From Patescibacteria group bacterium (GTDB taxonomy: Bacteria; Patescibacteriota; Patescibacteriia; XYB2-FULL-38-15), in NCBI GenBank assembly GCA_041650995.1, contig JBAZJZ010000003.1:22662-86661 (forward strand): a stretch of DNA of 64,000 nt, written 5' to 3'. This document shows positions 1,272 through 33,808 of this stretch, piece after piece. Position numbers and translations under genes: made by a program. Numbering within the stretch: the stretch's first letter is position 1; the number at the start of each line of letters is the position of its first letter. The notes below the pieces were generated by a model. The model was not told the DNA's origin, ran no database searches, and was given only the letters and a program-made list of their open reading frames with translations.

Positions 1272-1738
1272 ATTTATCCGAGTAATGGGTAATCGCTCTC
1301 ATTTTTCCGTTTAAGATCGGGGAAAAGGGGGAGGAAAGTCCGGACACCGTTTCGACATAAAGTCGAAAGAGAGATAGTCGCTAACAGCGACGGGGAGTAT
1401 GCATTGTTGTTTGTGTTGCGTCTGCCGTTTACGCGGCGGGGGCAGCTTAATCGAACATCATTTGATGAAGCCCACGGACAGTGCAACAGAAAATATACCG
1501 CTCGAATCCCGACGAAAGTCGGGGTGAGACCCCGCAGTATTGCGGGGCGGGTAAGGTTGAAATCGTGAGGTAAGAGCTCACGCGGGACAGCCTGGTGACA
1601 GGCGCCGTGGAAAACACCTATCCGGTGCAAGGCAAAAATAGCCGCTTGAGGTTGCGAGCAATCGTGATCCCAGATAGATGATTACCGTTTCGCATCATTG
1701 CGGGATACAGAATCCGGCTTATAGTTACTCGGATAAAT
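1272..1738 (+). ncRNA. rnpB: RNase P RNA (bacterial type)
   Basis: Conserved P4 strands GGAGGAAAGTCCGGAC (about 1327-1342) and ACAGAATCCGGCTTA (1708-1722). AGTGCAACAGAAA motif present. Terminal P1 pairing ATCCGAGTAA (1276-1285) with TTACTCGGAT (1725-1734). Confidence 0.8.
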
Positions 1739-2348: not shown

Positions 2349-3761
2349 ATGCTCAAAAAATCAGAACTTATTTTTTCCGTCATCTTGGTTCCTCTGGATT
2401 TTTTAATGCTCATCTTGGCAGCTCTGGCTGCTTATTTTTTAAGATTTGAAACATTTGCCGCTCTGCGACCGATTATTTATGAAATGCCTTTTGGTAATTT
2501 TTTAAATATCGCGGCGCTCACAGGTTTTCTTTGGCTTGCTATTTTTGCCCTCTCTGGACTTTACACGATTGGCGGAACGAGGCGAATTTTAGACGAACTC
2601 GCCAAAATTTTTTTAGCGTGTTCTGCCGGTTTAGCTGTCATAATTGTTTTGATTTTTTTCAATCGTGATTTATTTTCTTCCCGCTTTATAATTCTTGCTG
2701 CCTGGATCTTTGCCATTATTTTTGTGAGTTTTGGCCGGTTAGCCACGCGCTTTATTCAACGGGCGTTTTTTCGTCGAGGTATTGGCGTTCATCGAGTTGT
2801 GATTGTCGGTGAAGATAAAGCGGCTGATATTTTAGTTAATGAATTTTATAAAAATTCAGGGCTTGGCTTAAAGGTTATTAAAAGATACAAGAAATTTGAT
2901 GACGAAGCGGCGAGGGAGCTTGAAGAAATTTATCGGGCTGTCGGAGTTGACGAAATAATTCAGGCGCAAGGAGGAGCGAGTCGGGAGGAGACGATGAATC
3001 TTATTGATTTCTGCAACGAGCATCACATAGTTTTTAAGTATTCGGCTGATATTTTTTCCGTACAAGCAGCTAAAATTGATATCCGTGATTATGCCGGTGT
3101 GCCGGTTGCGGAAATTAAAAGAACTCGCCTTGAAGGTTGGGGGAGAATTTATAAAAGAATTTTTGATATTATTGGTTCGTTGATTTTGATGATTCTTTTT
3201 TCGCCGATCATGATTTTAACGGCTATTGCCATTAAGCTAGATTCTCGCGGTCCGATTTTTTGGAGCAAACTGGATGATGGAACGCCCGTAGAGAGAGTCG
3301 GCCAGAATGGCACCCCCTTTCATTACTTTAAATTTCGATCCATGAAGCCGCACACCCATAATTTGCGCTACACAGCGCTGGCCGAGCAGGATTTTAGAAA
3401 AGGGCCGCTTGTTAAAATTAAAGATGATCCGCGAATCACGCGCGTGGGAAAATTTATCCGACGTTTCAGTATTGATGAGTTGCCAGAGTTTTTTTTAGTG
3501 TTGACTGGAAAAATGAGTTTGGCTGGTCCGCGGCCGCATTTGCCCGAAGAGGTTGCTAGGTATAAAAAACACCACAAAAAAGTTTTAATTGTTAAGCCGG
3601 GCATCACGGGTCTTGCTCAAATTTCCGGTCGGGCCGATCTTGATTTTGAAGAAGAAGTTAAAATTGATGTATATTATATTGAAAATTGGTCGCTAAAACT
3701 CGATTTGTATATTTTGTTTAAAACCCCTTTAGTTGTTTTATTCGGCAAGGGGAGTGCCTAG
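2349..3761 (+). CDS. Polyprenyl-phosphate sugar phosphotransferase (bacterial sugar transferase, WbaP/WcaJ-like)
   Basis: N-terminal multi-TM region. C-terminal Bac_transf-type block ...SIDELPEFFLVLTGKMSLAGPRPHLPEE...KPGITGLAQISGR. The track ORF starts at a TTG (2322); the first ATG is 2349. Confidence 0.8.
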   Translation: MLKKSELIFSVILVPLDFLMLILAALAAYFLRFETFAALRPIIYEMPFGNFLNIAALTGFLWLAIFALSGLYTIGGTRRILDELAKIFLACSAGLAVIIVLIFFNRDLFSSRFIILAAWIFAIIFVSFGRLATRFIQRAFFRRGIGVHRVVIVGEDKAADILVNEFYKNSGLGLKVIKRYKKFDDEAARELEEIYRAVGVDEIIQAQGGASREETMNLIDFCNEHHIVFKYSADIFSVQAAKIDIRDYAGVPVAEIKRTRLEGWGRIYKRIFDIIGSLILMILFSPIMILTAIAIKLDSRGPIFWSKLDDGTPVERVGQNGTPFHYFKFRSMKPHTHNLRYTALAEQDFRKGPLVKIKDDPRITRVGKFIRRFSIDELPEFFLVLTGKMSLAGPRPHLPEEVARYKKHHKKVLIVKPGITGLAQISGRADLDFEEEVKIDVYYIENWSLKLDLYILFKTPLVVLFGKGSA

Positions 3762-3765
3762 ATTT

Positions 3766-4866
3766 ATGAAAGTCGCTTTGATTCATGATCATCTGACGCA
3801 AGATGGAGGGGCGGAAAGGGTGCTTAGGGTTTTTCGGGAAATTTTTCCAGAAGCTCCGGTTTATACCCTGGTTTATGATAAGAAAAAAATGGGAGCGGAG
3901 TTTGACGGAAAAAATATCAGAACATCTTTTATTCAAAAAATTCCCGGGGGAGTAAAAAAATTTAAATGGTTTTTGCCCCTGATGCCACTGGCTACGGAAA
4001 AACACGAATTGGACAGCTACGATGTGGTTCTTTCAAATTCCAGCGCGCTTTCAAAGGGCGTGATTACGCGCCCGGATGCCCTGCACATTTGTTATTGCCA
4101 TACGCCGACAAGATATCTTTGGACCGATACGCATCTTTATATCAAAGAATTGTCACATGGATCGCTCGTGAAAAAGGCCGTGTCGTTAATGCTTCCGAAA
4201 CTTAGAATGTGGGATCGGATGGCGGCCGAGAGAGTTGATAAATTTGTCGCCAATTCCAAAACCGTCCAGAAAAGAATTTCCAAATATTACGGCCGGGAAA
4301 GCGAGGTAATTTATCCGCCGGTTGATGTTTCAGAATTTAAAATTTCTGAGGCGCAAAAAAGATATTATTTAGCCGGCGGGAGATTGGTGCCATATAAAAG
4401 ATTCGATTTGGTTGTGCAGGCTTTTAACAAACTCGGCATTCCTTTAAAAATTTTTGGCGAAGGTCCGGAATTGCAAAAATTAAAAGAAATGGCCAAGGCT
4501 AATATTGAATTTTTAGGAAAGGTAACTGATGAAGAGAAAAAAGAGTTGTATGGAAAATGCATCGCCTTTATTCATCCGCAGGAAGAAGATTTTGGTTTAA
4601 TGGTAATTGAAGCTATGGCTTCTGGTCGGCCGGTTATTGCCTATCCTAAAGGCGGAGCGACGGAAACGGTGGCCGCGGGGAAAACGGGAACTTTTTTCCC
4701 GGATCAAAGCTGGGAATCGCTCGCGCATACGATTATTAGATTTAATCCAGAAGAATATAGACCGGAGGAAATTCGGGGGCACGCGGCGCAATTTGATACA
4801 ACAACCTTTAAGGATAAAATAAAAAGCTACATAGAAAATAGTTGGCAAGAATTTCAGAGTAAATAA
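3766..4866 (+). CDS. Glycosyltransferase family 4 (GT1 fold)
   Basis: GT4-like N-terminal region (HDHLTQDGGAERV) and C-terminal EEDFGLMVIEAMASGRPVIA motif. First ATG at 3766; the track start 3733 is TTG. Confidence 0.7.
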   Translation: MKVALIHDHLTQDGGAERVLRVFREIFPEAPVYTLVYDKKKMGAEFDGKNIRTSFIQKIPGGVKKFKWFLPLMPLATEKHELDSYDVVLSNSSALSKGVITRPDALHICYCHTPTRYLWTDTHLYIKELSHGSLVKKAVSLMLPKLRMWDRMAAERVDKFVANSKTVQKRISKYYGRESEVIYPPVDVSEFKISEAQKRYYLAGGRLVPYKRFDLVVQAFNKLGIPLKIFGEGPELQKLKEMAKANIEFLGKVTDEEKKELYGKCIAFIHPQEEDFGLMVIEAMASGRPVIAYPKGGATETVAAGKTGTFFPDQSWESLAHTIIRFNPEEYRPEEIRGHAAQFDTTTFKDKIKSYIENSWQEFQSK

Positions 4867-4867
4867 T

Positions 4868-6013
4868 ATGAATGTCGGCATTGACGTAAGATCATTACTT
4901 GAAAAAGAGCGGAGTGGCGTTGGGGAGTATACGTATGAACTCTTGAACGCCATTTTTAATATTGATAAAGAAAATCAATATTATCTTTTTTATAATTCCT
5001 TTAAAAAAGTTGGAGATAATTTTTTGGCAGAGTGGAAAAAACATCAGAATGTTCATTTTTGTGGATTTGGTTGGCCGAACAAATTATTGAATTTTTGTTT
5101 TAAATTTTTGAAGCGGCCCAGGGTTGATAAGACAATATTGCCAAAAGGTAAAATTGATTTATTTTTTATTCCAAATCTAAATTTTATTGCTCTATCGTCT
5201 GGCCTCCGAAAAATAATCACGGTTCACGATTTATCTTTTGAATTTTTTCCGAAATTTTTTTCTTGGAAGCGGCAATTATGGCATTGGTTTATAAATCCGC
5301 GCAAATTAATCAGCGGCGCAGATAAAATTATCGCCGTTTCGGAAAATACAAAAAGAGATTTGATTAATTTTTATAAAATTCCCGCGGAAAAAATAAAAAT
5401 AATCTATTCCGGCGTCGCCTGCCGTGAAAATGTTTTAGATATTGACGAAGTTAATAAAAAATATAATTTGCCAGATAATTTTATTTTATTTTTGGGGACG
5501 CTTGAACCAAGAAAAAATATTGATGGTCTGGTCCGCGCGTTTGAAATTTTAAAATCTTATCAGCCTATTGGCTTATCTGCTTATCAGCTGGTAATTGTCG
5601 GTCCGCGGGGGTGGCTTTATAAAAAAATATTGGCCCGCGCGGAAAAAAGTCCGGCGCGCGATGATATCAAATTTATAAATTATATTTCTCCCGAAGAAAA
5701 ATTTTCTTTTTATAAATTGGCCAAACTTTTTGTCTACCCGTCTTTCTATGAGGGATTTGGATTTCCTCCATTAGAAGCGACCCGAGCCGGAACGCCGGCA
5801 ATTGTAAGTTCAGTTTCATCTTTGCCCGAGGTTATCGGCGAAGCGGCTTTGATGGTTGATCCAAATAATCCGGCCGAGCTGGCAAAAGTAATGGCTGAAT
5901 GTTTGACCGATGAAAATCTACGCGCTACCTTGATTGAAAAAGGCAAAGCGCAAGCGGAAAAATTTAGCTGGACAAATGCCGCGAGGGAATTTTTGTCGCT
6001 AATTAATCAGTAA
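4868..6013 (+). CDS. Glycosyltransferase family 4
   Basis: C-terminal FVYPSFYEGFGFPPLEATRAGTPAIVSS (E-x7-E GT4 motif). Confidence 0.7.
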   Translation: MNVGIDVRSLLEKERSGVGEYTYELLNAIFNIDKENQYYLFYNSFKKVGDNFLAEWKKHQNVHFCGFGWPNKLLNFCFKFLKRPRVDKTILPKGKIDLFFIPNLNFIALSSGLRKIITVHDLSFEFFPKFFSWKRQLWHWFINPRKLISGADKIIAVSENTKRDLINFYKIPAEKIKIIYSGVACRENVLDIDEVNKKYNLPDNFILFLGTLEPRKNIDGLVRAFEILKSYQPIGLSAYQLVIVGPRGWLYKKILARAEKSPARDDIKFINYISPEEKFSFYKLAKLFVYPSFYEGFGFPPLEATRAGTPAIVSSVSSLPEVIGEAALMVDPNNPAELAKVMAECLTDENLRATLIEKGKAQAEKFSWTNAAREFLSLINQ

Positions 6014-6092: not shown

Positions 6093-7322
6093 ATGAAAAT
6101 AGGTATTGATGCTCGTTTTTTTGGGCCGGTGGGTAAGGGTTTGGGAAGATATGTGGAGCGATTGGTAGAAAATCTGGAAAAACTTGACCCCATACGAAGT
6201 TTCAGTAAACCGATGAACTCGGCTGGGCAACAGTCAGAAGAGAAATCGAATGGTGGACACACTGACAAAACCTCTACTTCGTACGGGGCGGGTCCCCAAA
6301 ATGAATACATAATTTTTTTGCGAAAAGAAAATTGGGATTATTACGCTCCCAAATTTTCCAATTTCAAAAAAGTTTTGGCCGACTATCCATGGTACAGTTT
6401 AAAAGAACAGATAATGATGCCACTCGCGATCCGGCGGGAAAAACTAGACCTTGTCCATTTTCCGCACTTTAACATTCCTATTTTTTGTTCGACAAAATTT
6501 GTCGCGACAATTCATGATTTGATTTTGCTTCAATTTCCAACTCCGCGGGCGACAACTCTCGGTCCGTTACTTTATAAAATAAAATATTTTGGTTATCGGC
6601 TCGTGATCGGTCTTGGCCTTCGGCGGGCAAAAAAAGTCATTACCGTTTCCGATTGCACAAAAAAAGAATTGGTAAAATTTTTTAAAATCAATCCGGGAAA
6701 AATCGCCGTCACCTACGAAGCTTGCGACGGCGTGGAGTATGGCCAGTTAAAGATGCCGGAGAGAAAACACCTAGTGAAATTTGGAATTACAAAACCGTAT
6801 TTGCTTTACGTCGGCAACGCTTATCCGCATAAAAATTTAGAAGGACTGATAAAAATTTTTCCTAAATTAAATTTGAATTGCCAGTTAGTGCTTGTCGGCC
6901 GTGAGGATTATTTTTATAAAAGGATGAAAGGGGAAATTAAAGGAACGCCGATTGAAAAAAATATTATTTTTACAGATTTTGTTTCAGAGGCGGTTCTAGC
7001 CGATCTCTACCGCAACGCGCGAGTTTATGTTTTTCCGTCATTTGTGGAAGGATTTGGTCTACCTGGCCTTGAAGCTATGAGCTATGGTTTGCCGCTTGCG
7101 GCTTCAAATTCCTCCTGCCTTCCGGAAATTTATGGTGATGCCGCGATTTATTTTAATCCAAAAGACGAGCAAGACATGATAGAAAAAATAAAATTTGTTT
7201 GGACAGACGAGCCGACGCGGAAAAACCTTATAAAATTGGGCCTGGAACAGGTTAAAAAATATAGTTGGAAAAATTTAGCCGAAAAAACTTTACAAATTTA
7301 CCAAAATGCCGGCAAGAATTAA
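6093..7322 (+). CDS. Glycosyltransferase family 4
   Basis: VFPSFVEGFGLPGLEAMSYGLPLAASNSS motif. Third GT4 gene in a row. Confidence 0.7.
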   Translation: MKIGIDARFFGPVGKGLGRYVERLVENLEKLDPIRSFSKPMNSAGQQSEEKSNGGHTDKTSTSYGAGPQNEYIIFLRKENWDYYAPKFSNFKKVLADYPWYSLKEQIMMPLAIRREKLDLVHFPHFNIPIFCSTKFVATIHDLILLQFPTPRATTLGPLLYKIKYFGYRLVIGLGLRRAKKVITVSDCTKKELVKFFKINPGKIAVTYEACDGVEYGQLKMPERKHLVKFGITKPYLLYVGNAYPHKNLEGLIKIFPKLNLNCQLVLVGREDYFYKRMKGEIKGTPIEKNIIFTDFVSEAVLADLYRNARVYVFPSFVEGFGLPGLEAMSYGLPLAASNSSCLPEIYGDAAIYFNPKDEQDMIEKIKFVWTDEPTRKNLIKLGLEQVKKYSWKNLAEKTLQIYQNAGKN

Positions 7323-9642
7323 AAAAAAATTGGAGATGAAAATAGCCCCGAACATGGGAGAACACCCGTCGCCGCATGTTTTAGATTTGAAAAAAGTAGT
7401 GGCGAAAAAAAGTGAGGCAGTAAAACTTCCGGAAGAGTCGGTAAGGACAGCGGGCTTTAAGGCTCCAGTCAAACGCGAGAGAATAAACAGGTTGACTTTT
7501 GTCCGCGCAAGAATTGCCCTTACGAGAAATGTTAGAAATTTTATCTCTTTTTTCCTCCGCGGTCCGCAGAGATTATTTAAAAATTTAGGGTTGGGGATTC
7601 TTGCTGTTCCCAGATTTTTTAAATTTTTAAGTTTTGCCTTCGCTGATTGTAAAAAATTATTAAGTTTTGGAGCGTTAGCTTTTCTTTTTATCCTGCCGCT
7701 CCAAACATTTTCTTATTACGAGTCGCTCCGAGAGACCGAAAAAGCAACTCTTCAGACGGCCGAAGAGGCTTACGCAAATTTATCGGCTGGCGGCGTGGAA
7801 ATTATGAGTGCTGATTTTTCCGGCGCGGCGGATAATTTCAGCCAGGCCGCGCGCGCTTTTTCCCGTTCGGGCGAAGAAATTGGACAAGTTAATTCCATTG
7901 TTTTAAATCTTCTCCGAGCTATGCCAGGCGAGGGAGAAAAATTGGAAGCGGGCGAAGCGCTCCTTTTTGCTGGAGAAAAATTAACCTTGGCCGGGGAGAA
8001 TATTCTTAGAAGTTTAGCTAATTTTCCCGCGGCGGCGAGCGATAAAAAATTAACAGAAAAGTTAAAAATTTTAAGAGATCATTTGTCAATGGTCCTGCCC
8101 GACGTGGCTGCAGCATCGGATAAGGTTTATGCCATAAAAATTCAGGCCGTGCCCGAGGACAAGCGGGAGGTTTTTCAAATCTTACAAGGAAAATTACCGC
8201 AGCTCGTTTCCAGTATGAAAAATTTAATTTCGGTTTCCGATTTACTGATAAAATTTTTGGGCGACGAAATGGACAAAAGATACTTAGTGATTTTCCAAAA
8301 TCCCGGAGAAATACGGCCGACAGGCGGTTTTATTGGAAGTTTAGCTCTGGTTGATTTTGATCGAGGAGAAATAAAAAATATGGAAGTGCCGGGCGGAGGG
8401 TCTTACGATTTTCAAGGATCGCTAAAAGAGAGAATTGCCTCGCCTGAACCATTGCAACTTATCGCGGCCAGGTGGCAGCTTCAGGACGCGAACTGGTTTT
8501 TTGATTTTCCGACATCTGCGCAAAAAATAAAATGGTTTTATGAAAAAAGCGGTGGACCCACTATTGACGGAGTTATTGCCGTGAACGCAGATTTAATCGC
8601 AGATCTTTTAGCCGTTGTCGGTCCGATTGAAATGCCAGAATACGGTAAAACTCTAAGTAAAGAAAATTTCATTGAAGAAATTCAAAAAGCCGTGGAAATA
8701 GAATACGACAAGGCGGAGAATAAGCCGAAGAAAATCATTGGTGATATGGCCCCGAAATTGATAGCCAAATTAATTTCCGCCGGACCGAAACAGTTTGGTG
8801 AAATTTTATCAACACTTCTTCGCGCGCAGAAGGAAAAAAATATTTTGCTTTATTCTACTTTTCCGGAAATAGAACACGAAATTAAAAATTTTGATTGGGG
8901 CGGAGAAGTAAAATCCGTTCCGGAAAAGGTGGATTATCTGGCTGTGGTTAATACTAACATAGGCGGGCAAAAAACCGATCGGGTGATAGAACAGGCAGTA
9001 AATCTTGAAACGAATATCGTTGAAGGCGGCTATATTAAAAATAAGTTAACTATTACGAGAGCGCATAAAGGAATTAAAAGAGAATTGTTTACCGGCGTTA
9101 GGAATGTCGATTACCTAAGAGTTTATGTTCCTCTTGGCAGTTCCTTAATTTCAGCTACAGGATTTGAAGCTCCGCCGGCAAGCCTGTTTGAAAAACCGGA
9201 GGGTGATTATAAAATTGATATTGATTTAAAAAATAGCGAAAGATCTTCGGTCGACGCGCCGAGTGGAACATCAATTTCCAGCGAGTCCGGCAAAACAGTT
9301 TTTGGAAATTGGGTTCAAGTTGATCCGGGTGAGACGGCTACGGTTACCCTAGAATATATTTTACCTTTTAGACTTTCTTTGTCGGTTTTGGAGAAAAGTT
9401 GGTGGGATAATTTTGAAGAGAAATTTGGACAAAAAAAGGATTCGAGCGAAGTTTATCAACTGTTAGTTCAAAAACAATCGGGAGTATTATCAAATTTCAC
9501 GAGTAGCTTAAGTTTTCCTTGCGAGTGGCAGTTGGCCTGGCAATCGGGAAACGGCGTGAAAGTTGGTGCGGTGTCAATAGAATCTCAGAGCCAATTGGAT
9601 TCGGATAGATTTTATTTATTCGGTTTTACTTTAGCAGATTAG
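7306..9642 (+). CDS. Membrane protein, DUF4012-like (envelope polysaccharide-associated)
   Basis: TM segments after residue 110, then FQNPGEIRPTGGFIGS...GVIAVNADLIADLL block. DUF4012 recalled from memory, not verified. Confidence 0.4.
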   Translation: MPARIKKKLEMKIAPNMGEHPSPHVLDLKKVVAKKSEAVKLPEESVRTAGFKAPVKRERINRLTFVRARIALTRNVRNFISFFLRGPQRLFKNLGLGILAVPRFFKFLSFAFADCKKLLSFGALAFLFILPLQTFSYYESLRETEKATLQTAEEAYANLSAGGVEIMSADFSGAADNFSQAARAFSRSGEEIGQVNSIVLNLLRAMPGEGEKLEAGEALLFAGEKLTLAGENILRSLANFPAAASDKKLTEKLKILRDHLSMVLPDVAAASDKVYAIKIQAVPEDKREVFQILQGKLPQLVSSMKNLISVSDLLIKFLGDEMDKRYLVIFQNPGEIRPTGGFIGSLALVDFDRGEIKNMEVPGGGSYDFQGSLKERIASPEPLQLIAARWQLQDANWFFDFPTSAQKIKWFYEKSGGPTIDGVIAVNADLIADLLAVVGPIEMPEYGKTLSKENFIEEIQKAVEIEYDKAENKPKKIIGDMAPKLIAKLISAGPKQFGEILSTLLRAQKEKNILLYSTFPEIEHEIKNFDWGGEVKSVPEKVDYLAVVNTNIGGQKTDRVIEQAVNLETNIVEGGYIKNKLTITRAHKGIKRELFTGVRNVDYLRVYVPLGSSLISATGFEAPPASLFEKPEGDYKIDIDLKNSERSSVDAPSGTSISSESGKTVFGNWVQVDPGETATVTLEYILPFRLSLSVLEKSWWDNFEEKFGQKKDSSEVYQLLVQKQSGVLSNFTSSLSFPCEWQLAWQSGNGVKVGAVSIESQSQLDSDRFYLFGFTLAD

Positions 9643-9671: not shown

Positions 9672-11717
9672 ATGGCAGAGACAAAAGAAAAAAAGAAAAA
9701 AGTGGTTAAAGTCCGGCCGATTAAAAAAATGGCAAGCCGCAAAGGAAAAGAGGTAAAAATGATTGAGGCAGCAGAAGAAATGGTGGAATTGCCTCCCATA
9801 AAAGAAGAAAAAATGTTAGAGACTGTTCGTCGGCCCGCACTTCCCAAGGGAAAAGAAAAACATTTAAGTAAAAAAGAGCTTGAAAAAGAACTAAGAGAAA
9901 TTTACGAAGACCAAGACGGTGAAATTTCGGATATGTCAAAAATTTATCATAAGAAAAAGAGCAGGGTGAAGAGATTTATGTTGGGGGCGCTGATATTTTT
10001 TGTCTGTGCCGCGGCGCTTTCCTGGGCAGGATTTTTCTTTTTTGGGCGGGGCAGGGCTTTTACTGGTGAAAATGTAAATCTGGAAATAATTTCGCCAGAT
10101 ACTATCGCGGGCGGAGAAAACGTGGAATTTATAATAAAATATAAAAATAACGAGACAGTCCCTCTCGGCCAGGCGGAAATAAGAGTAAGATTGCCGGATG
10201 ATTTCGCACAAAGCGGAGCGGAACCCGCTTCCTCGGACGGAGAAAATATTTGGAGAATCGGAAGCATCGCCGCGGGCAAGGGAGGGGAGATAAAAATCAT
10301 AGGATCACTTTTCGGCGCGGAGGAATCCCTAGAGACACTTCAGGCAGTTTTAACTTATAAGCCGGCAGATTTTAATTCTGAATTTCAAAAAGTGGCTACG
10401 GCTGTAACAAAAATACAAAGTTCCCTTTTAGACGTGTCTCTTTCCGGCCCAGAAAGAATTTTAACTAATAAGGAGACGTCTTTTAAAATAAAATATGAAA
10501 ATACAGGAGAGGCAACACTTCAGGGTATAAAAATTTCTGTAATCGCCCCCGCAGATTTTTCTTTTAAAGAAAAACAGGGAGAAAAGGAAATATCAAGTTG
10601 GGAAATTCTTGAGGCAGTGCCGAATGAAGAAAAGGAGATTAATTTTTTGGGGTCGTTTGGTTCGGCCGCTGAAGGAGAAAAGGAATTCAAGGTGCAGATA
10701 GGATTTATGAAAGGAGAAAAATTTTATCTGCAGAAAGAAAATTATTTCAAGACAAATGTTTTAGCCGGGGCAATCCTCCCGACACTTATTTTAAACGGCG
10801 ATTCCAAAGATCGCGCGTTAAATTTTGGGGATACGTTGAATTACGCCATTGTTTATCAAAATAAAGATAAAACAGATTTGTCTGACGTTGAAATAAAAAT
10901 GGTATTTGAATCAACTTCGCGCAACAACAAAATGATTTTAGATTGGGCCACCTTCAAAGATGATTATAATGGAACAGTGCTCGGCACCCAGCTTTCTCCG
11001 GAAATTCGTCAGGGAACAATTACTTGGACGAAACGGCAGGTTACCAATCTCTCCAAACTAGCGCCCGGCGTGGAAGAAACAATTAATCTCCAGATGAGGA
11101 TAAAACCTTTTTCCGAATTTCAAAATTGGGGCACTAAAGATTTTGAAGTTAAAAGCTGGGTGGAAGTTAATGTCGGGAAAAATGGGGCGGACGGGGCAGA
11201 GGAAACAATTCAAAGCAATAAAATTAATTTTAAAATAAACAGCGACATGGTTTTGCAAACAGCGGCGCGTTACTTTAACGATGATAATATCGCCGTTGGC
11301 AGCGGCCCTCTTCCTCCCAGAGTTGGAGAAGCCACGGCCTACAGAATTTTTTGGAACATAACAAACTCTTTGCACGAAATTACAGATTTGAAAATAAGCA
11401 CTATCTTGCCAGAGAACATTCGTTGGTCTAATAAACATGAAATTACCGCCGGCGAACTGAAATTCAACGAGGCGACGCGTGAAGTTTCTTGGACACTAAA
11501 TAGGATGCCGCTTGATGTTAATGCCCTTGGTGTTAATTTTGAAATTTTAGTTACGCCTACCGCGGCAGAAAAAGGTAAACTTTTAACTTTGCTTTTGGGA
11601 ACGAATTTAACAGCGACTGATAAATCAACCGGGGCAATAATTACGAAAACCGGAGAGGCGTTAACTTCCAATCTTGACGGCGATCCGGGAGCAGAGGGCA
11701 AGGGGATTGTGCGATAA
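9672..11717 (+). CDS. Large surface protein: Lys-rich cytoplasmic N-terminus, one TM, repeated beta-rich (DUF11/CARDB-like) extracellular domains
   Basis: KKKK-rich N-terminus, hydrophobic segment LGALIFFVCAAALSWAGFFFF, then repeated about 100-aa units with G-E-N/T-rich strands. Confidence 0.45.
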   Translation: MAETKEKKKKVVKVRPIKKMASRKGKEVKMIEAAEEMVELPPIKEEKMLETVRRPALPKGKEKHLSKKELEKELREIYEDQDGEISDMSKIYHKKKSRVKRFMLGALIFFVCAAALSWAGFFFFGRGRAFTGENVNLEIISPDTIAGGENVEFIIKYKNNETVPLGQAEIRVRLPDDFAQSGAEPASSDGENIWRIGSIAAGKGGEIKIIGSLFGAEESLETLQAVLTYKPADFNSEFQKVATAVTKIQSSLLDVSLSGPERILTNKETSFKIKYENTGEATLQGIKISVIAPADFSFKEKQGEKEISSWEILEAVPNEEKEINFLGSFGSAAEGEKEFKVQIGFMKGEKFYLQKENYFKTNVLAGAILPTLILNGDSKDRALNFGDTLNYAIVYQNKDKTDLSDVEIKMVFESTSRNNKMILDWATFKDDYNGTVLGTQLSPEIRQGTITWTKRQVTNLSKLAPGVEETINLQMRIKPFSEFQNWGTKDFEVKSWVEVNVGKNGADGAEETIQSNKINFKINSDMVLQTAARYFNDDNIAVGSGPLPPRVGEATAYRIFWNITNSLHEITDLKISTILPENIRWSNKHEITAGELKFNEATREVSWTLNRMPLDVNALGVNFEILVTPTAAEKGKLLTLLLGTNLTATDKSTGAIITKTGEALTSNLDGDPGAEGKGIVR

Positions 11718-11740
11718 GTGATAAAGAAATTAAAATTTAA

Positions 11741-11768
11741 ACCCGCCACAATAAGGCGGGTTTTGAGT
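11741..11768 (+). terminator. Rho-independent terminator
   Basis: AAACCCGCCacaataaGGCGGGTTTT hairpin with T-tract. Confidence 0.6.
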
Positions 11769-11818
11769 TGACGGTTTTAAGATTTTAAACTAAGTTTATG
11801 ATAGAAGGAGGATCAGCA

Positions 11819-12040
11819 ATGTGTCGATTCGGACAGGAAGGCGGAGCGCCGATCGGAGGCGGAGATTCTTCCATGACGGAGAGGCCGGATGCGCCGAATT
11901 GGCAGGAGGCCAACGAATATCTGCGGAGGATGCTCGGTCCGAGGGCCTATGCCAATTTGAGGTTCAATCGGAGGGAACTTTCGATGCGCGACGCAGAGCT
12001 CATTGTTCGGCGATACGGCGGATCGAAGGACAAAAAATAG
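11819..12040 (+). CDS. Hypothetical small protein (73 aa) in GC-rich islet
   Basis: Strong RBS GAAGGAGGA 7 nt before the ATG. GC-rich codons contrast with the flanking genes. Confidence 0.35.
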   Translation: MCRFGQEGGAPIGGGDSSMTERPDAPNWQEANEYLRRMLGPRAYANLRFNRRELSMRDAELIVRRYGGSKDKK

Positions 12041-12049
12041 GGGACGGAC

Positions 12050-12268
12050 ATGAACATCGGCCAATGGATCGAGAAGGTTCGTAATTCGCCAATCGGGCGG
12101 ACTCTTCTCGTACCAGTACGTACTCCAGGCGCGATAGTCAATTTCGTCTGGCAGACGTTTTCATACTGGCTGGACGAGCGGAACGCGAAGCGTGGCGTGA
12201 CACTTGATGTTGAGAGTGTTCGCCAGCGGGGCGAGCCGTTTCTGCCGGATCCGAGATGCCATCACTGA
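12050..12268 (+). CDS. Hypothetical small protein (72 aa) in GC-rich islet
   Basis: Starts 10 nt after the previous stop. Same GC-rich composition. Confidence 0.3.
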   Translation: MNIGQWIEKVRNSPIGRTLLVPVRTPGAIVNFVWQTFSYWLDERNAKRGVTLDVESVRQRGEPFLPDPRCHH

Positions 12269-12328
12269 CGTGAGAGAGGGGGGGCGAGTGGACCAAGGGT
12301 TCACTCTTTTTTTATTGTAACAAAGATT

Positions 12329-12654
12329 TATTCTATTTTTCTGCCATGAATCATTATCTGTATAAAAGCCGTTTGCTCAAATCCATGGCCAAAAAATGAT
12401 AAGCGGCCGGCCATTTTATAAAAATCGTCTAAATCCACGCCGCGTTCTTTGGCTAGATCTTCGAATTCGTTTATTAATTGCAGAGTAGTAACTTCTCCTT
12501 CAGTTATTGCTTCTAAGACATTGCCGCCGCGTTCTTTGATTATTTTTTTAACTCTTGTTCATGCCGAATGGCAATTTCTTTAGTTAATTCGACACCGCGT
12601 CTTGCATTAGCCATATTATCTTTTTGTTCATGTATTTTTCTCTCACCTTCCATA
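12329..12654 (-). pseudogene. Small ORF interrupted at an A7 homopolymer (possible frameshift or pseudogene, about 105 aa if fused)
   Basis: Minus-strand ORF MEGERKIHEQKDNMANARRGVELTKEIAIRHEQELKK ends with a stop directly after A_AAA_AAA. A -1 frame continues IIKERGGNVLEAITEGEV...GRKIE to 12329. Confidence 0.3.
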
Positions 12655-12665
12655 TTATTTATTAA

Positions 12666-12737
12666 TGCCCTCGGCAGGAATCGAACCTGCACCACCTCCT
12701 CCGGAGGGAGGCGTTGTATCCATTCAACTACGAGGGC
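12666..12737 (-). tRNA. tRNA-Arg (anticodon CCG)
   Basis: Cloverleaf: acceptor GCCCTCG/CGAGGGC, anticodon loop CTCCGGA, T-loop TTCGATT. 72 nt. Confidence 0.85.
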
Positions 12738-13690
12738 TTTAAAATTTTTTTAGCAAGATTGTAAATTTTATACCACAAATTATTAATTGGCAAATCAAAA
12801 GTTCCGGGATAAGAAATTTCAAAACCACCAAAGCCTTTTTTAAAACGAGTGACTCCCGGCCATTTTTTTTCATCAATTCCCCAAAAATCGTAAAATTTAT
12901 AACCAAGATTTTTTGCTTCCTTAATAATTTCCCAGTGCAGAAAATATGGGGCCATTAAACTTCGATACTCATGTGAGGAGGCGCCGTGAAGATAAGTGGC
13001 CGTGTCGCCAAAATATCCGACGATGGCGGCGGCGAGTGGCATGTTTTCAAAATAAGCGACCATAAGTTCCGCGCGCATTTCTGTTTTCCCATCGCCGTTT
13101 ATATTTTTTAGCATGGATTCATAATATTTTTTGGGGTGTGCATGAAATTTATCACGGGCAGTAGTTTCTTCCATCAATTTCCAAAAATCTTCCAGAGCCC
13201 CGGTTTTTAAAACCAGATTTTTTTTCTCTGCCAGACGAATGTTATAGCGAGTTTTTTCGTGCATTAGAGAAAGCAATTCTTCGTTGGTTTTTAGGAGATT
13301 TAAAACGAGCGTTTGTTTTGGTTGAACGGACGCGACGCGCAGTAGTGGTGGTAGCAAGATTTCTGTCAGCGGTTCTATTTTTAAAAATATAGCTCCATCT
13401 TTTTGAGTGGTTTTTTTAATTTTGTCGATTAGCTCTTCTGGTTCGCCGACCGGGCCTCGAGGAGCATAAAAATATCCTTTCCTGAACGGCAGTAATTTTA
13501 CAAGCACGCCACAGATCGCCTTAAGATTATTTTTTTCATCAACTAAACCGAGCCGGTAAATTTTATGGCCATTTATCTCCTGAAAATCCAGCCACTCGGC
13601 GCTCTGTAAAAAAATCCCAGTCTGAGTCGGCTGGTTTAATAAAAAATCATTCCATTTAATTTTATCGTCGATTTGTTTAACTTCTAACAT
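12728..13690 (-). CDS. FemAB-family peptidoglycan interpeptide-bridge aminoacyltransferase (FemX-like)
   Basis: 320 aa. N-terminal FLQSAEWLDFQ...YFYAPRGPV pattern typical of the FemABX family. The 3' end overlaps tRNA-Arg by about 10 nt. Confidence 0.55.
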   Translation of the reverse strand: MLEVKQIDDKIKWNDFLLNQPTQTGIFLQSAEWLDFQEINGHKIYRLGLVDEKNNLKAICGVLVKLLPFRKGYFYAPRGPVGEPEELIDKIKKTTQKDGAIFLKIEPLTEILLPPLLRVASVQPKQTLVLNLLKTNEELLSLMHEKTRYNIRLAEKKNLVLKTGALEDFWKLMEETTARDKFHAHPKKYYESMLKNINGDGKTEMRAELMVAYFENMPLAAAIVGYFGDTATYLHGASSHEYRSLMAPYFLHWEIIKEAKNLGYKFYDFWGIDEKKWPGVTRFKKGFGGFEISYPGTFDLPINNLWYKIYNLAKKILKPS

Positions 13691-20692: not shown

Positions 20693-20713
20693 TAGTTTTC
20701 TAAAATTTTATCT

Positions 20714-20748
20714 TGACAAGAATTTTTTTCAATGATAATTTATTGATA
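20714..20748 (+). promoter_or_regulatory. Sigma70-like promoter (TTGACA-16 nt-ATAATT)
   Basis: Consensus -35 at 20714-20719, ATAATT after a 16-nt spacer, upstream of the Cys-rich peptide gene. Confidence 0.4.
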
Positions 20749-20808
20749 TTGTGTTTATGGCGTAAAGTGGGGGAAAGCTCAAGCCGAGGGAAGGAGAGGG
20801 AAGAAAGA

Positions 20809-21072
20809 ATGACGACAAGAACGATTCTCGCTGAGGCCAAGCCGTTGGGGCATCCTTGCGGCCATTGCCGCACTCGCGGAACGTGCGGTTGTGACGTCTG
20901 TGTTCAAGGAGGCGGAGTTTGCGGGGAGTGCGGCGGACTCCGCTACTTCGTTCCTCCAACCACCATTTCCATGGATGAGTTCGATCCTCCACGAGAGGAG
21001 CCTCTTGCCAGAGTGGTCCTCGCCCGGCGGCCGAAGAAGCCACCGTTCGGGAGGAGGGTGGCTCGTCGCTAA
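20809..21072 (+). CDS. Cys-rich small protein (87 aa; 8 Cys in CGHCRTRGTCGCDVCVQGGGVCGECGG)
   Basis: RBS-like GGAAGGAGAGGGAAG before the ATG. Very GC-rich codons. Confidence 0.4.
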   Translation: MTTRTILAEAKPLGHPCGHCRTRGTCGCDVCVQGGGVCGECGGLRYFVPPTTISMDEFDPPREEPLARVVLARRPKKPPFGRRVARR

Positions 21073-24483: not shown

Positions 24484-24816
24484 TTAGTTTGTCTCTTCCG
24501 GCTGGCAGGCGCCAAGCGGCGTGCCGAAGAGCTTCGTGGCGAACGGCCCGGCCGCGATGATGCTTCGCTGCCTCTTCTCGGCATGGCTCTGGAGAGCCGT
24601 CTCGAGATGAGCCTTGAGGCCGATCTGTTCGTCCGCGGAGACTTGCATCACCGCGGCCAGACTGGCCAAAGCGCCAAGGCAGATCTCCCTGTCTGCCGGC
24701 AGCAGGTCTGTCGTGCCCATCATGATGTCGCCCTTCGCGATGGAAAAGAAGCAGCTCTGGCCGTCTTTTGTGAAAGTGATGACCAGGCTGTGCACCATGA
24801 GTTTGAAAGCACCCAT
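24484..24816 (-). CDS. Small Cys-containing protein, paralog A (110 aa), unknown family
   Basis: RBS GGAAGGAGG 6 nt upstream. Shares KLM..., ...CF(F/L)...KG(D/E)I... and (E/R)(I/T)C(L/F)..L..LA(A/V) blocks with the two ORFs upstream. Confidence 0.5.
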   Translation of the reverse strand: MGAFKLMVHSLVITFTKDGQSCFFSIAKGDIMMGTTDLLPADREICLGALASLAAVMQVSADEQIGLKAHLETALQSHAEKRQRSIIAAGPFATKLFGTPLGACQPEETN

Positions 24817-24845
24817 CTTTCCTCCTTCCTTTTCGCGAGTAGTTG

Positions 24846-25175
24846 CTAGTTCAACTGCTGCGCGGCCTCGGTGCGCAGGATGTCGTTGATGATCTTTTCC
24901 GTGAAGAAGTCGCGTCCGACAGCGACCATCGGTCGCGTAGCTCTCTCGTACTCATCGAAAGCCGCGTTCAGTTGGTCCTTGAGCTTGGCGCATTCGGGCT
25001 CTGGGATTTGCTCCAGGTAAGCCACGAACTTTAGGGCCGCAAGGCAGGATCTCCTGGTCGGCCACATGAAAGGAACAGCCGCGAGCTCGACCCTATCCTT
25101 CAGGATGGCGAACGAGCCGTAACAGCAGCCGACGCCGAAGTTGAATTCCAAGGTGTAGGTTGCCTTGTTCTTCAT
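24846..25175 (-). CDS. Small Cys-containing protein, paralog B (109 aa)
   Basis: RBS GGAGGG upstream. Same architecture, more divergent (GCCYGSFAIL...RRSCLAALKFVAYL). Confidence 0.45.
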   Translation of the reverse strand: MKNKATYTLEFNFGVGCCYGSFAILKDRVELAAVPFMWPTRRSCLAALKFVAYLEQIPEPECAKLKDQLNAAFDEYERATRPMVAVGRDFFTEKIINDILRTEAAQQLN

Positions 25176-25244
25176 TTTTTAACCCTCCCTCTTTGGTCCG
25201 TCCGAGCCTTTCGCGCGGGCGGCCTGATTCCAAGAACCCAAACT

Positions 25245-25499
25245 TTACGGTTGACGTGTCTCGGCGTCGTGTTTTCGGAAAGCTTCCTCCAGCTGTGCAC
25301 GGAGATTATTCTGCTCCTCCTCCGGGACACCGTTTGACACAGCCAGGTTTTCCAGGACGCGAAAGCAGGTTTCCTGGTCTGCTTTGACCGGCGGCGCGAT
25401 CGCAACCAAGATCTCGCCTTTCTGAACGATGAGAAAGCACGTCGAGTCGCCGTTCATCCAACTCACCGCCAAGGCATACCTCATGAGCTTTGCATCCAT
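25245..25499 (-). CDS. Small Cys-containing protein, paralog C (about 84 aa)
   Basis: ATG at 25499 with GGAGGG 9 nt upstream (the track start 25517 is TTG). KLMRYALAVSW...STCFLIVQKGEIL...ETCFRVLENLAV aligns with paralog A. Confidence 0.45.
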   Translation of the reverse strand: MDAKLMRYALAVSWMNGDSTCFLIVQKGEILVAIAPPVKADQETCFRVLENLAVSNGVPEEEQNNLRAQLEEAFRKHDAETRQP

Positions 25500-25552
25500 T
25501 TTCCCCATTCCCTCCAACCCTCGCTCGTTTGAGAGTACATTATTTTATATCA

Positions 25553-25646: not shown

Positions 25647-28600
25647 ATGAATGGTCAATTCGTGAAAGAATTTGTCTCCACAATTTCGGAAAAATATAAA
25701 ACCGGTCAGGCAAAAGAGATGGCCTATCGGCCGGCGCTTGAAAAACTATTTCAAGATATTACCGGCTTGAATGTGATAAACGACCCCAAGCGGAGCGAAT
25801 ACGGCGCGCCGGACTTTGTTTTTATAAAAGGTAAGATTGCCGCCGCTTATGCCGAAGCCAAAGACCTGGGTGTGTCGCTTGACGAAACGGAAAAGGGCGA
25901 GCAGATGGCACGTTATTTTGGTTATCCGAATTTAATTTTGACAAATTGTTTGGAGTTTAGGTTTTTTAGAAATGGAGAAAAATATGAAACCGTAAAAATT
26001 GCTGAAATAAAAAATAGCGAAATCGCGTCGGTTGAAGATAGTTTTAATCTTTTGGAAGATACACTCTTGGCATTTATCAAAGAAGCCAAAGAGCCGATTA
26101 AGTCCGGTGTTGTTCTCGCCAAAGTGATGGCCGGCCAGGCGCGGCGCATTCGCGACAATATCAAAAAATATTTAAAAGAGGGCGACGAAAAGAAAAATGA
26201 AAGTTTGATTGCCGTTTATAATACTATTAAAAAATTATTACTCGCCGATTTGGATCACGAAAAATTTGCCGATATGTACGCCCAGACAGTTGTCTACGGT
26301 TTATTCGCGGCTCGCTATCATGATAAAACGGCAGACACTTTTTCTCGTGGAGAGGCGCGCGATTTGGTGCCAAAATCCAACCCATTTTTACGTAAATTTT
26401 TTGACCACATTGCCGGAGAAGATTTTGACGAGCGCGTAGAGTTTATTGTCAATGAACTCTGCGAAGAATTTAAGCACGCCGATATTCAGGCGATCGTGCA
26501 TGATTATTACAAAGTGGAAAAGGACGACAGCCGCGACCCGATTGTTCATTTTTACGAAGATTTTTTGCAGGAGTATGATGCGGCCGAACGAAAAAAGATG
26601 GGAGTTTTTTATACCCCCTTGCCGGTGGTGTGTTTTATTGTTCGCGCGATTGATGATGTTTTGAAAAAAGAATTTGGTCTAAACGGTTTGGCTGATACTT
26701 CCAGAACGGAAATAAAAGGGTTGCAGGGAATGAAGGCAAAACAGTCGGTTCACAAAGTTCAAATACTTGATCCGGCGACCGGTACCGGCACATTTTTAAA
26801 CGAAGTGATTTTGCAAATTAAAAAATCATTTGTCGGACAAGAGGGCCGATGGTCAAGTTATGTTCGTGATGATTTACTGCCGCGGTTGCACGGATTTGAA
26901 ATAATGATGGCGCCGTACACCATCGCCCATCTTAAACTTTCCACGCTTTTGAAAGAAACTGGAGTGGATATAAAAGACGAACGTATAGAAATTTACCTCA
27001 CTAATTCTCTGGAAAAAGCGGATAAATATGATGATACGCTTTTTGCCGGTTTAGGTTTTGATAAAGCTATCACGGAAGAATCTCGTTTAGCCGGAAAAGT
27101 TAAAAATGATTTGCCAATAATGGTAGTGCTCGGCAATCCGCCGTACAATGTCAGCTCACAAAATAAAGGCGAATGGATCGGCGAGTTGATAAAAGATTAT
27201 AAAAAAGATCTGGATGAAAGGAATATACAACCTTTATCCGATGATTATATTAAATTTATCCGCTTCGCCCAATATCTTGTAGACAAAAATGGCGAGGGAA
27301 TTATTGGGATGATTACCAACAATTCTTACATTGACGGAATTACCCATCGCCAAATGCGTAAAAATCTTTTGGAAACTTTTGATAGTATTTATATTTTGGA
27401 TTTGCACGGCAATGCTAAGAAAAAAGAAACCGCGCCCGACGGCAGCGTTGATCAAAATGTATTTAGTATAATGCAAGGCGTGTCCATCGCGCTGTTTGTC
27501 AAAAAAGCAGGCAAGAAAAAATCACTCGGCACGGTTTATCACGCTGAATTATTTGGAAAGCAAAAAGACAAATACGAGGCGTTGAATAATTTTGATTTTG
27601 AAAAGATGAAATGGAATAAGATTGATTGCAAGGATCCGTATTACTTTTTTGTGCCAAAGGATTTTAGAGCAGAGGATGAGTATAAAGAGGGGATCAGCGT
27701 AACTAATTTATTTCAAAAATGGGCTTCGGGAGTTGCTACTGCGAAAGATGACCTGATAATAAAATTTTCAGTCGATGAGATCAAGGAGCTTCGCGCCAGT
27801 TTTAGTAGATATTCAGATCAAGAGATAGCGCAGAAATACCAAGTCGACCAGAAAAAGGTTGTTCAAGTCAGAAAGGATATGGATAACGTTATTGGCGAAT
27901 ACACCCCTATTTTATATCGACCATTTGACACAAGATATACCCTTTACTCTCCGAACAGTGAAGGCGTGTTTCAAAGACCAAGGCCAGAAATAATGAAGCA
28001 CTTGTTAAAAGACAATTTGGCAATTTTAACATGTAAACAACAGACTAGTTTTGATTTTCAGCATGTATTTTTGTCAGCGACAATTACAGATCGATGTGGT
28101 GTTTCATTACAAACCGGTGAAGTCGGATATGTTTTCCCTCTTTATCTTTATGCCGACGACGGATCAAAAATTCCGAATCTCAAAAAAGAAATTGTGGCTG
28201 AAATAGAAAAAATTGTCGGCAAGGTGACGCCGGAAAATGTTTTGGATTATATCTACGCCGTTTTGCACTCGCCGAGTTATCGCGAAAAATATAAAGAATT
28301 TTTGAAGATAGATTTTCCGCGGGTGCCGTATCCGAAAAATGAAAAGCGATTTTTCGCGTTGGCAAAATTGGGCGAGGAGTTGAGGCATCTGCATTTGTTG
28401 GAAAGTTCGAAGGTTGAAAAATTTATTACCACTTATCCCGAGGCAGGGGATAATTTGGTGGAAAAAGTTGTCTATAAAGATGGAAAAGTTTATATTAATG
28501 CTTCGCAATATTTCGGTGGCGTGCCGGAAATCGCCTGGAACTTTTCCATCGGCGGCTATCAGCCGGCGCAGAAATGGTTGAAAGATCGCAAAGGCCGCAA

Positions 28601-28697
28601 ACTCTCCAACGCCGACATTGAACATTATCAAAAAATTGTTGTGGCGTTGGTGGAGACGGATAAACTTATGAGAGGAATTGATAAAGTTAATAAATAA
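25647..28697 (+). CDS. Type IIG restriction enzyme / N6-adenine DNA methyltransferase fusion (MmeI-like)
   Basis: N-terminal PD-(D/E)xK-like GAPDFVF...AEAKD. Gamma-class MTase motif I ILDPATGTGTFL and motif IV VVLGNPPYN. Long C-terminal target-recognition region. 1016 aa. Confidence 0.7.
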   Translation: MNGQFVKEFVSTISEKYKTGQAKEMAYRPALEKLFQDITGLNVINDPKRSEYGAPDFVFIKGKIAAAYAEAKDLGVSLDETEKGEQMARYFGYPNLILTNCLEFRFFRNGEKYETVKIAEIKNSEIASVEDSFNLLEDTLLAFIKEAKEPIKSGVVLAKVMAGQARRIRDNIKKYLKEGDEKKNESLIAVYNTIKKLLLADLDHEKFADMYAQTVVYGLFAARYHDKTADTFSRGEARDLVPKSNPFLRKFFDHIAGEDFDERVEFIVNELCEEFKHADIQAIVHDYYKVEKDDSRDPIVHFYEDFLQEYDAAERKKMGVFYTPLPVVCFIVRAIDDVLKKEFGLNGLADTSRTEIKGLQGMKAKQSVHKVQILDPATGTGTFLNEVILQIKKSFVGQEGRWSSYVRDDLLPRLHGFEIMMAPYTIAHLKLSTLLKETGVDIKDERIEIYLTNSLEKADKYDDTLFAGLGFDKAITEESRLAGKVKNDLPIMVVLGNPPYNVSSQNKGEWIGELIKDYKKDLDERNIQPLSDDYIKFIRFAQYLVDKNGEGIIGMITNNSYIDGITHRQMRKNLLETFDSIYILDLHGNAKKKETAPDGSVDQNVFSIMQGVSIALFVKKAGKKKSLGTVYHAELFGKQKDKYEALNNFDFEKMKWNKIDCKDPYYFFVPKDFRAEDEYKEGISVTNLFQKWASGVATAKDDLIIKFSVDEIKELRASFSRYSDQEIAQKYQVDQKKVVQVRKDMDNVIGEYTPILYRPFDTRYTLYSPNSEGVFQRPRPEIMKHLLKDNLAILTCKQQTSFDFQHVFLSATITDRCGVSLQTGEVGYVFPLYLYADDGSKIPNLKKEIVAEIEKIVGKVTPENVLDYIYAVLHSPSYREKYKEFLKIDFPRVPYPKNEKRFFALAKLGEELRHLHLLESSKVEKFITTYPEAGDNLVEKVVYKDGKVYINASQYFGGVPEIAWNFSIGGYQPAQKWLKDRKGRKLSNADIEHYQKIVVALVETDKLMRGIDKVNK

Positions 28698-33798: not shown

Positions 33799-33808
33799 GA
33801 GACAGACA

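Follow-up and report, generated by a model that had tools for sequence, protein, structure and literature searches.

DUF4012 is an envelope-associated protein family enriched in bacteria of the Candidate Phyla Radiation (CPR), where it is catalogued as fam000574 (PMC6744442), and CLIPPER, a surface-protein domain previously called DUF11, is isopeptide-bonded (bioRxiv 10.1101/2025.04.25.650565). Genes for both precede a small GC-rich patch in a Patescibacteria group bacterium, which we analysed within a 64,000-nt stretch of contig JBAZJZ010000003.1 (hereafter the window; coordinates are window positions). Described systems that such a patch brings to mind include type II toxin-antitoxin (TA) modules beside tRNA genes, tRNA-associated genomic islands and small accessory proteins encoded beside CPR envelope operons. 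The patch is a self-contained two-gene operon for two unannotated small proteins, encoded by open reading frames (ORFs) that we call ORF1 and ORF2. Our preferred reading, which we hold at even confidence, is that this module is a chromosomally resident operon in which ORF1 is a small cytoplasmic accessory or regulatory factor of the DUF4012-CLIPPER surface system, and ORF2 its clade-specific partner.

The compositional signal is sharp. GC content measured in 200-nt windows is 0.54-0.59 across 11800-12300, compared with about 0.35-0.45 in the surroundings, and the segment 11819-12298 is 57.7% GC against 41.6% for the window as a whole. ORF1 (11819-12040, + strand) encodes 73 aa, and ORF2 (12050-12268, + strand) encodes 72 aa and starts 9 nt past the ORF1 stop; in relatives this junction ranges from a 4-nt overlap to a 14-nt gap. 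GC at codon positions 1/2/3 is 0.58/0.51/0.64 in ORF1 and 0.62/0.44/0.61 in ORF2, versus 0.49/0.36/0.40 in the long ORFs of the window. As all three positions are raised, both amino-acid content and codon choice contribute. An earlier, sequence-only reading of this DNA had described two linked ORFs of 73 and 72 aa with about 55-60% GC and a strong ribosome-binding site, placed between the terminator of a surface-protein gene and tRNA-Arg(CCG), next to an AT-rich minus-strand ORF interrupted at a homopolymer, and had found that neither protein fitted a recognised family. This description stands: the two ORFs are present at 11819-12268, the flanking elements are there too, the homopolymer is a T7 run at 12543-12549, and neither ORF1 nor ORF2 has a family match in Pfam, NCBIfam, PHROGs, PADLOC or the sequences of the PDB.

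The module has its own expression signals, and these are conserved. Upstream lie the DUF4012 gene (7306-9642) and the CLIPPER gene (9672-11717). The 5' boundary of the module is the terminator hairpin of the latter, which encodes a 681-aa CLIPPER-domain surface protein (11739-11763, + strand, AAACCCGCC-loop-GGCGGGTTT, with T's to 11767); an equivalent hairpin is found in the related loci L007, L008 and L012. The next position begins a promoter-like site (11768-11796, + strand) composed of a -35 element TTGACG at 11768-11773, a 17-nt spacer and a -10 element TAAGTT at 11791-11796. In a 7-sequence DNA alignment its columns TTGAC and TAA.TT are invariant (alignment consensus TTGACR / TAAnTT), and this conservation, together with the match to consensus, suggests that the site is a promoter. 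The Shine-Dalgarno sequence GAAGGAGG (11804-11811, + strand), 7 nt before the ORF1 ATG, is also invariant in the alignment, one base in L012 excepted, and the window contains the promoter-like arrangement with a GGAGG after it just once. At the 3' end, an intrinsic terminator (12286-12313, + strand, GAGTGGACC-AAG-GGTTCACTC then T7) has a stem that pairs completely (100%) in 7 sequences; two of its seven pairs carry compensatory changes. Between it and the ORF2 stop codon lies a run of seven G's (12278-12284, + strand), and a G6-G8 run occupies the same position in every relative, including L029, in which only a deletion remnant of the module is left. A single promoter-like site and a single terminator thus serve both ORFs, an arrangement of two small co-transcribed adjacent genes that is shared with type II TA modules.

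Both ORFs are real genes, as judged from the selection acting on both and from the preserved reading frame of ORF2. Six homologues of ORF1, at 64-73% identity, give ratios of nonsynonymous to synonymous substitution (dN/dS) of 0.14-0.36, with changes concentrated at third codon positions. ORF2 remains open at 71-73 aa in all complete relatives despite only 31-43% identity between its two allele types, with dN/dS of 0.15-0.5 overall and 0.15-0.19 in close pairs.

On the searches we made, ORF1 founds a family of small proteins that is rare, lacks annotation and appears specific to Patescibacteria. In the clade of the window its core reads PDW.EANEYL...LRF.RR.LSM.DAELI, preceded by an N-terminal tail, MCRFGQEGGAPIG, that is conserved within the clade; the core of the wider family is PDW.EANE[YF]L..LG.EVY..LRF.R.KLSMHDAELI, in proteins of about 60-120 aa. 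A profile search of 1.84 billion representatives returned 12 relatives at E < 1e-3, and the ORF1 of the window was the best match of the family profile (E = 9e-40). A word-indexed search with a wider alignment found 23 family clusters (at 90% identity) among about 5.8 billion, all of small proteins without domain annotation. The family is absent from viral contigs, ORF1 is its single copy in the window, and the module shows no BLASTP similarity to the remaining GC-rich patches of the window. Neither a signal peptide nor a transmembrane segment is predicted. An AlphaFold2 model built from 22 sequences has a disordered tail (residues 1-26) and helices at 28-39, 41-46 and 56-70, with a predicted local distance difference test score (pLDDT) of 81-91 in the core, so that ORF1 is predicted to be a cytoplasmic protein with a three-helix core of about 45 residues and a disordered N-terminal tail. 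This fold had no structural match in the PDB or among viral structures. A double-glycine bacteriocin leader, considered for the PIGGG motif of ORF1, was rejected; the GG is not conserved, and the corresponding residues in type-A relatives are PIGREVS or PLGRGKT.

ORF2 is restricted to the clade of the window. A word-indexed search found no homologues of ORF2, yet it missed ORF2 itself too, and its relatives were recovered solely by reading the loci found through ORF1. The protein contains many aromatic residues, and its central segment, built around an invariant P-x-R-x-P, is borderline-hydrophobic; the maximum Kyte-Doolittle score over 19 residues is 1.06-1.88, under the usual transmembrane threshold in three of four alleles, and its net charge ranges from +1 to +7. 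A single-sequence AlphaFold2 model is helical, at low confidence (pLDDT 55). The alleles fall into two types, type A in the window, L007, L008 and L011/L025, and type B in L001, L004, L010, L012/L027 and L023. The C-terminus of ORF1 differs in step with the type of ORF2, its tail ending ...LIV..GG.K in type A and ...LIIQRLGK in type B.

The module is an ancestral resident of this clade, not an insertion at the tRNA gene. We found it in about 12 related loci (L001-L012 and L023-L028, one of them in a metagenome-assembled genome titled Patescibacteria group bacterium). Loci recovered through ORF1 share the order DUF4012, CLIPPER, module, tRNA-Arg(CCG) and, where the contig extends far enough, FemAB-RuvA-NIF3-IleRS, the same neighbours as in the window; the module lies between CLIPPER and tRNA-Arg/FemAB in L001, L004, L007, L008, L010, L011/L025, L012/L027, L023 and L028. 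GC at third codon positions (GC3) across these relatives is 0.62-0.69 in ORF1 and 0.60-0.81 in ORF2, compared with 0.36-0.49 in flanking genes. The sequence-only reading had taken the pair for foreign cargo inserted beside tRNA-Arg, such as a TA or other addiction module, and this part of it largely fails. The orthologous region of related genomes has the same content and the same GC-rich composition, the very outcome that this reading had itself set as speaking against it, and a module found at the same site in relatives is not freshly inserted there. The window holds no repeat of the tRNA-Arg 3' end: patterns of 20 nt with 3 mismatches and of 14 nt with 2 recovered only the tRNA itself and a distant chance site (46.7 kb), and a repeat scan of 11-14 kb gave chance-level matches only. 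No integrase, recombinase or transposase was found nearby, either among the ORFs at 7.3-18 kb or among the Pfam tags of orthologous contigs, which between them comprise DUF4012, CLIPPER, FemAB, RuvA, NIF3, IleRS and Lactamase_B only. No TA or addiction family matched in PADLOC, PHROGs, NCBIfam or Pfam, where neither protein had a hit below E = 0.04; the best, a 10-residue alignment with the Fst type I toxin (E = 0.041), is noise. That the patch has a history apart from its flanks is nevertheless borne out, by the allele replacement through recombination described below. A GC-rich patch beside a tRNA gene is, in short, insufficient evidence of an integrated element.

What does vary among relatives is the gap between the module terminator and the tRNA. 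It holds an AT-rich interrupted ORF in the window, an unrelated zinc-ribbon ORF of 133 aa in L012/L027, and only a hairpin in L001, L004 and L008. The piece that relatives lack is the AT-rich interrupted ORF, not the GC-rich pair. The zinc-ribbon (CxxC) ORF of L012 lies at 3540-3941 of that locus, on the minus strand, and is 58% GC. On the other side of the module, between it and CLIPPER, L001/L002/L004 encode a 604-aa Cys-rich, MopE-like secreted protein (~4060-5875; 60% GC, GC3 0.66); in L001 and L004 this gene and the module together form a GC-rich patch of 2.6 kb.

An accessory role for ORF1 in the DUF4012-CLIPPER system is suggested because ORF1-family genes repeatedly follow DUF4012-CLIPPER gene pairs. 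Distant family members, at 32-50% identity, lie directly after DUF4012 and CLIPPER genes in two further lineages (P0014 in L016/L017; P0026 and P0010 in L018/L019), whose CLIPPER proteins are only about 32% identical to that of the window. Each of these lineages has two tandem ORF1 paralogues (L016 4001-4626; L018 3483-4357). The first starts 37-44 nt after the CLIPPER stop codon with no terminator between, and the second, like the module of the window, comes with a promoter-like site (TTGACA) and a terminator of its own. Tiny lineage-specific partner ORFs also occur beside distant family members, an acidic one of 57 aa in L018 and, in L013 (4001-4314), a highly basic one of 37 aa that overlaps the stop codon.

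In the mechanism we propose, the operon would run from promoter and strong ribosome-binding site through ORF1 and ORF2 to the terminator. ORF1 may bind cytoplasmic parts of the membrane-anchored DUF4012 and CLIPPER proteins, or may control their expression, and ORF2 would be a clade-specific partner translated together with ORF1. We infer both the functional tie to DUF4012-CLIPPER and a physical partnership of the two proteins; the latter is hinted at by the co-variation of the ORF1 tail with ORF2 type and by the joint passage of the 3' part of ORF1 and ORF2 in the L012 recombinant described below.

Several observations weigh against an accessory role. DUF4012-CLIPPER adjacency holds for the clade of the window, L016/L017 and L018/L019 and fails for L013, L014 and L022, a sample too small for statistics; with three of the six sampled lineages lacking these neighbours, a function read from gene neighbourhood is correspondingly exposed. 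In the clade of the window itself, a terminator and a separate promoter stand between the CLIPPER gene and the module, and co-regulation is not evident. The ORF1 fold, having no structural relatives, offers no functional hint, ORF2 has no homologues outside the clade, and the module is dispensable in at least one lineage. Finally, the persistent GC3 excess and the swapping of alleles are left unaccounted for by an accessory factor, and a conflict-type module would fit them better.

This swapping is seen most clearly in the comparison of L008 with L012. DNA identity is 90-98% from CLIPPER and its terminator, across the promoter, to ~30 nt into ORF1. It falls to 40-68% over the remainder of ORF1 and over ORF2 and the tRNA, and is back at 93-95% in FemAB. 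The mosaic segment (L008 3180-3770 versus L012 3020-4170) has breakpoints about 30 nt into ORF1 and at the FemAB start, and in the L012 recombinant the 3' part of ORF1 was kept together with ORF2. L001 and L004 show the opposite pattern, with flanks at synonymous saturation (proportion of synonymous differences, pS, 0.62-0.68) and modules that are alike (pS 0.25-0.37). Relatives have tRNA-Arg(CCG) at the same position, and its sequence comes in a 72-nt and a 74-nt type; L007 has the 74-nt type and L008 the 72-nt type, each beside the module that these two loci have in common. The module, the tRNA-Arg(CCG) gene and the optional genes are thus seen to be swapped independently among closely related lineages. 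Exchange of the module looks like homologous replacement between conserved flanks, not site-specific integration, and the slot between CLIPPER and tRNA-Arg/FemAB is recombination-prone, with module alleles, tRNA type and optional genes exchanged or lost.

Loss is documented in L029, whose flanks are the nearest to those of the window (87% amino-acid identity for both DUF4012 and CLIPPER). At L029 4001-4090, an internal deletion of about 360 nt has left the promoter, Shine-Dalgarno sequence, ORF1 start, G-run and terminator in place. Since the remnant keeps the borders of the module, it is an internal deletion and not an empty attachment (att) site, and the module is dispensable in at least this one lineage. 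The remnant is a 29-aa ORF, MCRFGQEGGAPSGREVSFAVKEPDGVDHH, with an end similar to the ...RRHH terminus of type-A ORF2; its product is P0015 of the deep protein search. Beside these rearrangements we note that the first ~38 nt of ORF1 (11819-11856) show a single difference between the window and L007, L008 and L012. The near-invariance of this stretch among type-A alleles contrasts with the synonymous saturation of flanking genes, and both the L008/L012 breakpoint and the L029 deletion start just 3' of it.

The alternative that fares best is that the module was acquired horizontally long ago and sits in a hotspot of integration or recombination, of which it would be the oldest and most widespread occupant; we consider this possible, though doubtful, and it is compatible with either function discussed here. 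The slot between CLIPPER and tRNA-Arg would then collect GC-rich accessory genes from a GC-richer pool. Its GC-rich co-occupants would fit such a pool, both the MopE-like gene that makes up the 2.6-kb patch with the module in L001/L004 and the zinc-ribbon ORF that adjoins the module in L012, and the history of the module is discordant with that of its flanks. The islet is also not the sole GC-rich patch of the window; further accessory patches of this composition lie at 20.7-21.6, 24.4-25.5 and 33.7-36.4 kb. However, no integrase, att repeats or transposase accompany the module, all homologues were found in Patescibacteria-like contexts, and no GC-rich donor was identified. Nor has GC3 drifted to the host value. 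It is high in all relatives despite near-saturated synonymous sites between the allele types, which argues for maintenance and not for a fading foreign signature. As to the cause of this excess, a test of mRNA stability gave no consistent signal across 7 homologues.

We think it unlikely that the pair is a new toxin-antidote, addiction or toxin-immunity module, with ORF2 a small, aromatic-rich and membrane-active cationic peptide, ORF1 its cognate neutraliser in the cytoplasm, and the matched allele pairs a product of diversifying selection and recombination. Two small, tightly linked and probably translationally coupled genes of atypical composition would suit such a system. So would the two divergent allele types with their co-varying ORF1 C-terminus, the cassette replacement between near-identical flanks in L008 and L012, the loss of the module in L029, and the hydrophobic aromatic central helix and positive charge of ORF2. 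Yet TA, defence and phage families are unmatched in Pfam, NCBIfam, PADLOC and PHROGs, and the module is fixed at one locus, neither scattered nor on mobile DNA. Distant lineages have ORF1-family genes, often as tandem paralogues, with no ORF2 homologue. Within each type, ORF2 is under purifying, not diversifying, selection (the dN/dS of 0.15-0.19 in close pairs), and the hydrophobicity of three of its four alleles is too low for a typical transmembrane segment. A related proposal, to which we also give little weight, is that the two proteins are a previously unknown cognate pair kept GC-rich by selection and traded as matched alleles among Patescibacteria populations. Such a pair would be a new system of addiction or immunity, or else would set the specificity of the DUF4012-CLIPPER apparatus in a switchable way. 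If this were true, ORF1 would be the specific partner of ORF2, itself a small effector or membrane-active peptide, and in the second version the apparatus may serve episymbionts in contacting their hosts.

In AT-rich genomes, patches of high GC frequently turn out to be structured RNAs. The GC richness could accordingly also reflect structured RNA, either a non-coding RNA in place of genes or an mRNA of dual function whose fold is under selection, an account that we regard as very improbable. The + strand is more stable than its dinucleotide shuffles (z = -3.5, with -1.7 for the minus strand), RNAalifold draws a long hairpin within ORF1 (92% paired), in which 18 pairs have changes on both sides versus 14 +/- 2 in shuffles, and the start of ORF1 is nearly invariant among type-A alleles. 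These pair counts are inflated, because the structure came from the same alignment on which it was tested. Moreover, the protein-coding signature is clear in both ORFs, and shuffles of synonymous codons that hold protein and codon usage fixed fold as well as the native sequence in four of seven homologues (z = -1.8, -0.1, +0.4, -3.7, -0.1, +0.9 and -1.2). In Rfam, 11790-12320 has no match even at E = 10, while the same search of the window shows RNase P RNA and six tRNAs. As the main account, non-coding RNA was rejected on the missing Rfam match and on the synonymous-shuffle control, which erased the fold signal in most homologues; an RNA fold under selection would at most add something minor, and unproven, to the coding role.

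The AT-rich interrupted ORF (12328-12653, minus strand, 37% GC) is specific to the lineage of the window and is absent from L001, L004, L007, L008, L012, L025 and L029. Read in three frames, it breaks at TTA AAA AAA TAA, the T7 run of the + strand, where one added base or a -1 slip restores a frame of 108 aa; the break is a perfect A_AAA_AAA slippery heptamer with the stop codon TAA directly after it. The same T7 run is present in two other assemblies of this sequence (L020 and L021), whose read sets may overlap. Because the C-terminal frame lacks a start codon of its own for ~35 codons, until residue 73, the two pieces were once a single gene. This gene may now be a pseudogene, or may be expressed by programmed -1 frameshifting or transcriptional slippage. 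We found no relatives of it in metagenome contigs, viral contigs or phage genomes, and searches returned only noise from Pfam, PHROGs, PADLOC and NCBIfam. Beyond it lie tRNA-Arg(CCG) (12666-12737, minus strand), of the 72-nt type, and an ORF of the FemAB family (12728-13690, minus strand), which share 10 nt (12728-12737), the stop-codon end of the ORF running into the 5' end of the tRNA gene. In L012 the two are about 95 nt apart, which indicates that the overlap in the window is a lineage-specific extension of the FemAB ORF.

The other GC-rich patches of the window have contents of their own. At 24484-25517 (minus strand) are three small paralogous ORFs of 110, 109 and 90 aa with 56-60% GC (BLASTP E = 2e-16 and 1e-6), directly upstream of an ORF of 1016 aa (25647-28697) that we judge, by sequence alone, to be a type IIG-like restriction-modification enzyme or methyltransferase. 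A Cys-rich ORF of 119 aa with CxxC motifs (20713-21072, + strand) and an 871-aa protein with an N-terminal part that resembles an M23 peptidase by eye (33773-36388, + strand) occupy two further patches, both unrelated to the module. The Cys-rich repeats of the 871-aa protein are weakly similar by BLASTP to the MopE-like protein of L001/L004. The RNase P RNA of the window (1277-1737, + strand) is of bacterial class A (182 bits) and carries large insertions, measuring 461 nt against 367 model positions.

Lineage-specific pairs of small-protein genes of this kind are common in CPR genomes. A rare, unannotated family that is repeatedly linked to the DUF4012-CLIPPER genes characteristic of CPR is a candidate cytoplasmic handle on their envelope system. 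The locus is also an example of a small recombination hotspot, lying between CLIPPER and FemAB, in uncultivated lineages that are closely related, and its codon-level GC excess, held despite saturated synonymous divergence, makes it a clean case for asking how local composition is kept up in reduced genomes.

How, then, does the module compare with known systems? Like type II TA modules beside tRNA genes, it consists of two small adjacent genes with a short gap and their own promoter-like site and terminator, and it shares with them an atypical composition, a position on the tRNA side and allelic diversity. Unlike them, it has no homology to toxin or antitoxin families, and its predicted structure appears to offer no recognisable DNA-binding antitoxin fold. 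It sits at one conserved chromosomal position throughout the clade, where such modules are patchy or mobile, its first gene has homologues that stand without the second, and neither att repeats nor an integrase go with it.

Among tRNA-associated genomic islands, the likeness is in the slot, which lies beside tRNA-Arg(CCG), varies among relatives and has occupants of atypical GC. Here, in contrast to such islands, neither an integrase nor a duplication of the tRNA 3' end is seen; the GC-rich pair is what stays constant in the slot, and the breakpoints fall inside ORF1 and at the FemAB start. ORF2 by itself may resemble the leaderless, aromatic-rich cationic bacteriocins of the aureocin A53 / lacticin Q type. 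Like these, it is small, predicted to be helical, rich in Trp/Phe/Tyr, net cationic and without a signal peptide. It differs in its length (72 aa versus about 50), in its modest hydrophobicity, in having no sequence or profile match, and in having no transporter or immunity gene nearby.

The remaining comparison is with the small accessory proteins encoded beside CPR envelope operons. The module departs from these in that neither ORF1 nor ORF2 falls into a described family, half of the distant members sampled have other surroundings, and the linkage in the clade of the window is positional only, the pair being a separate transcription unit. It agrees with them in that ORF1 is small, helical and cytoplasmic by prediction, has no enzymatic motifs, and belongs to a family that adjoins DUF4012 and CLIPPER genes in three deeply separated lineages of the six sampled.

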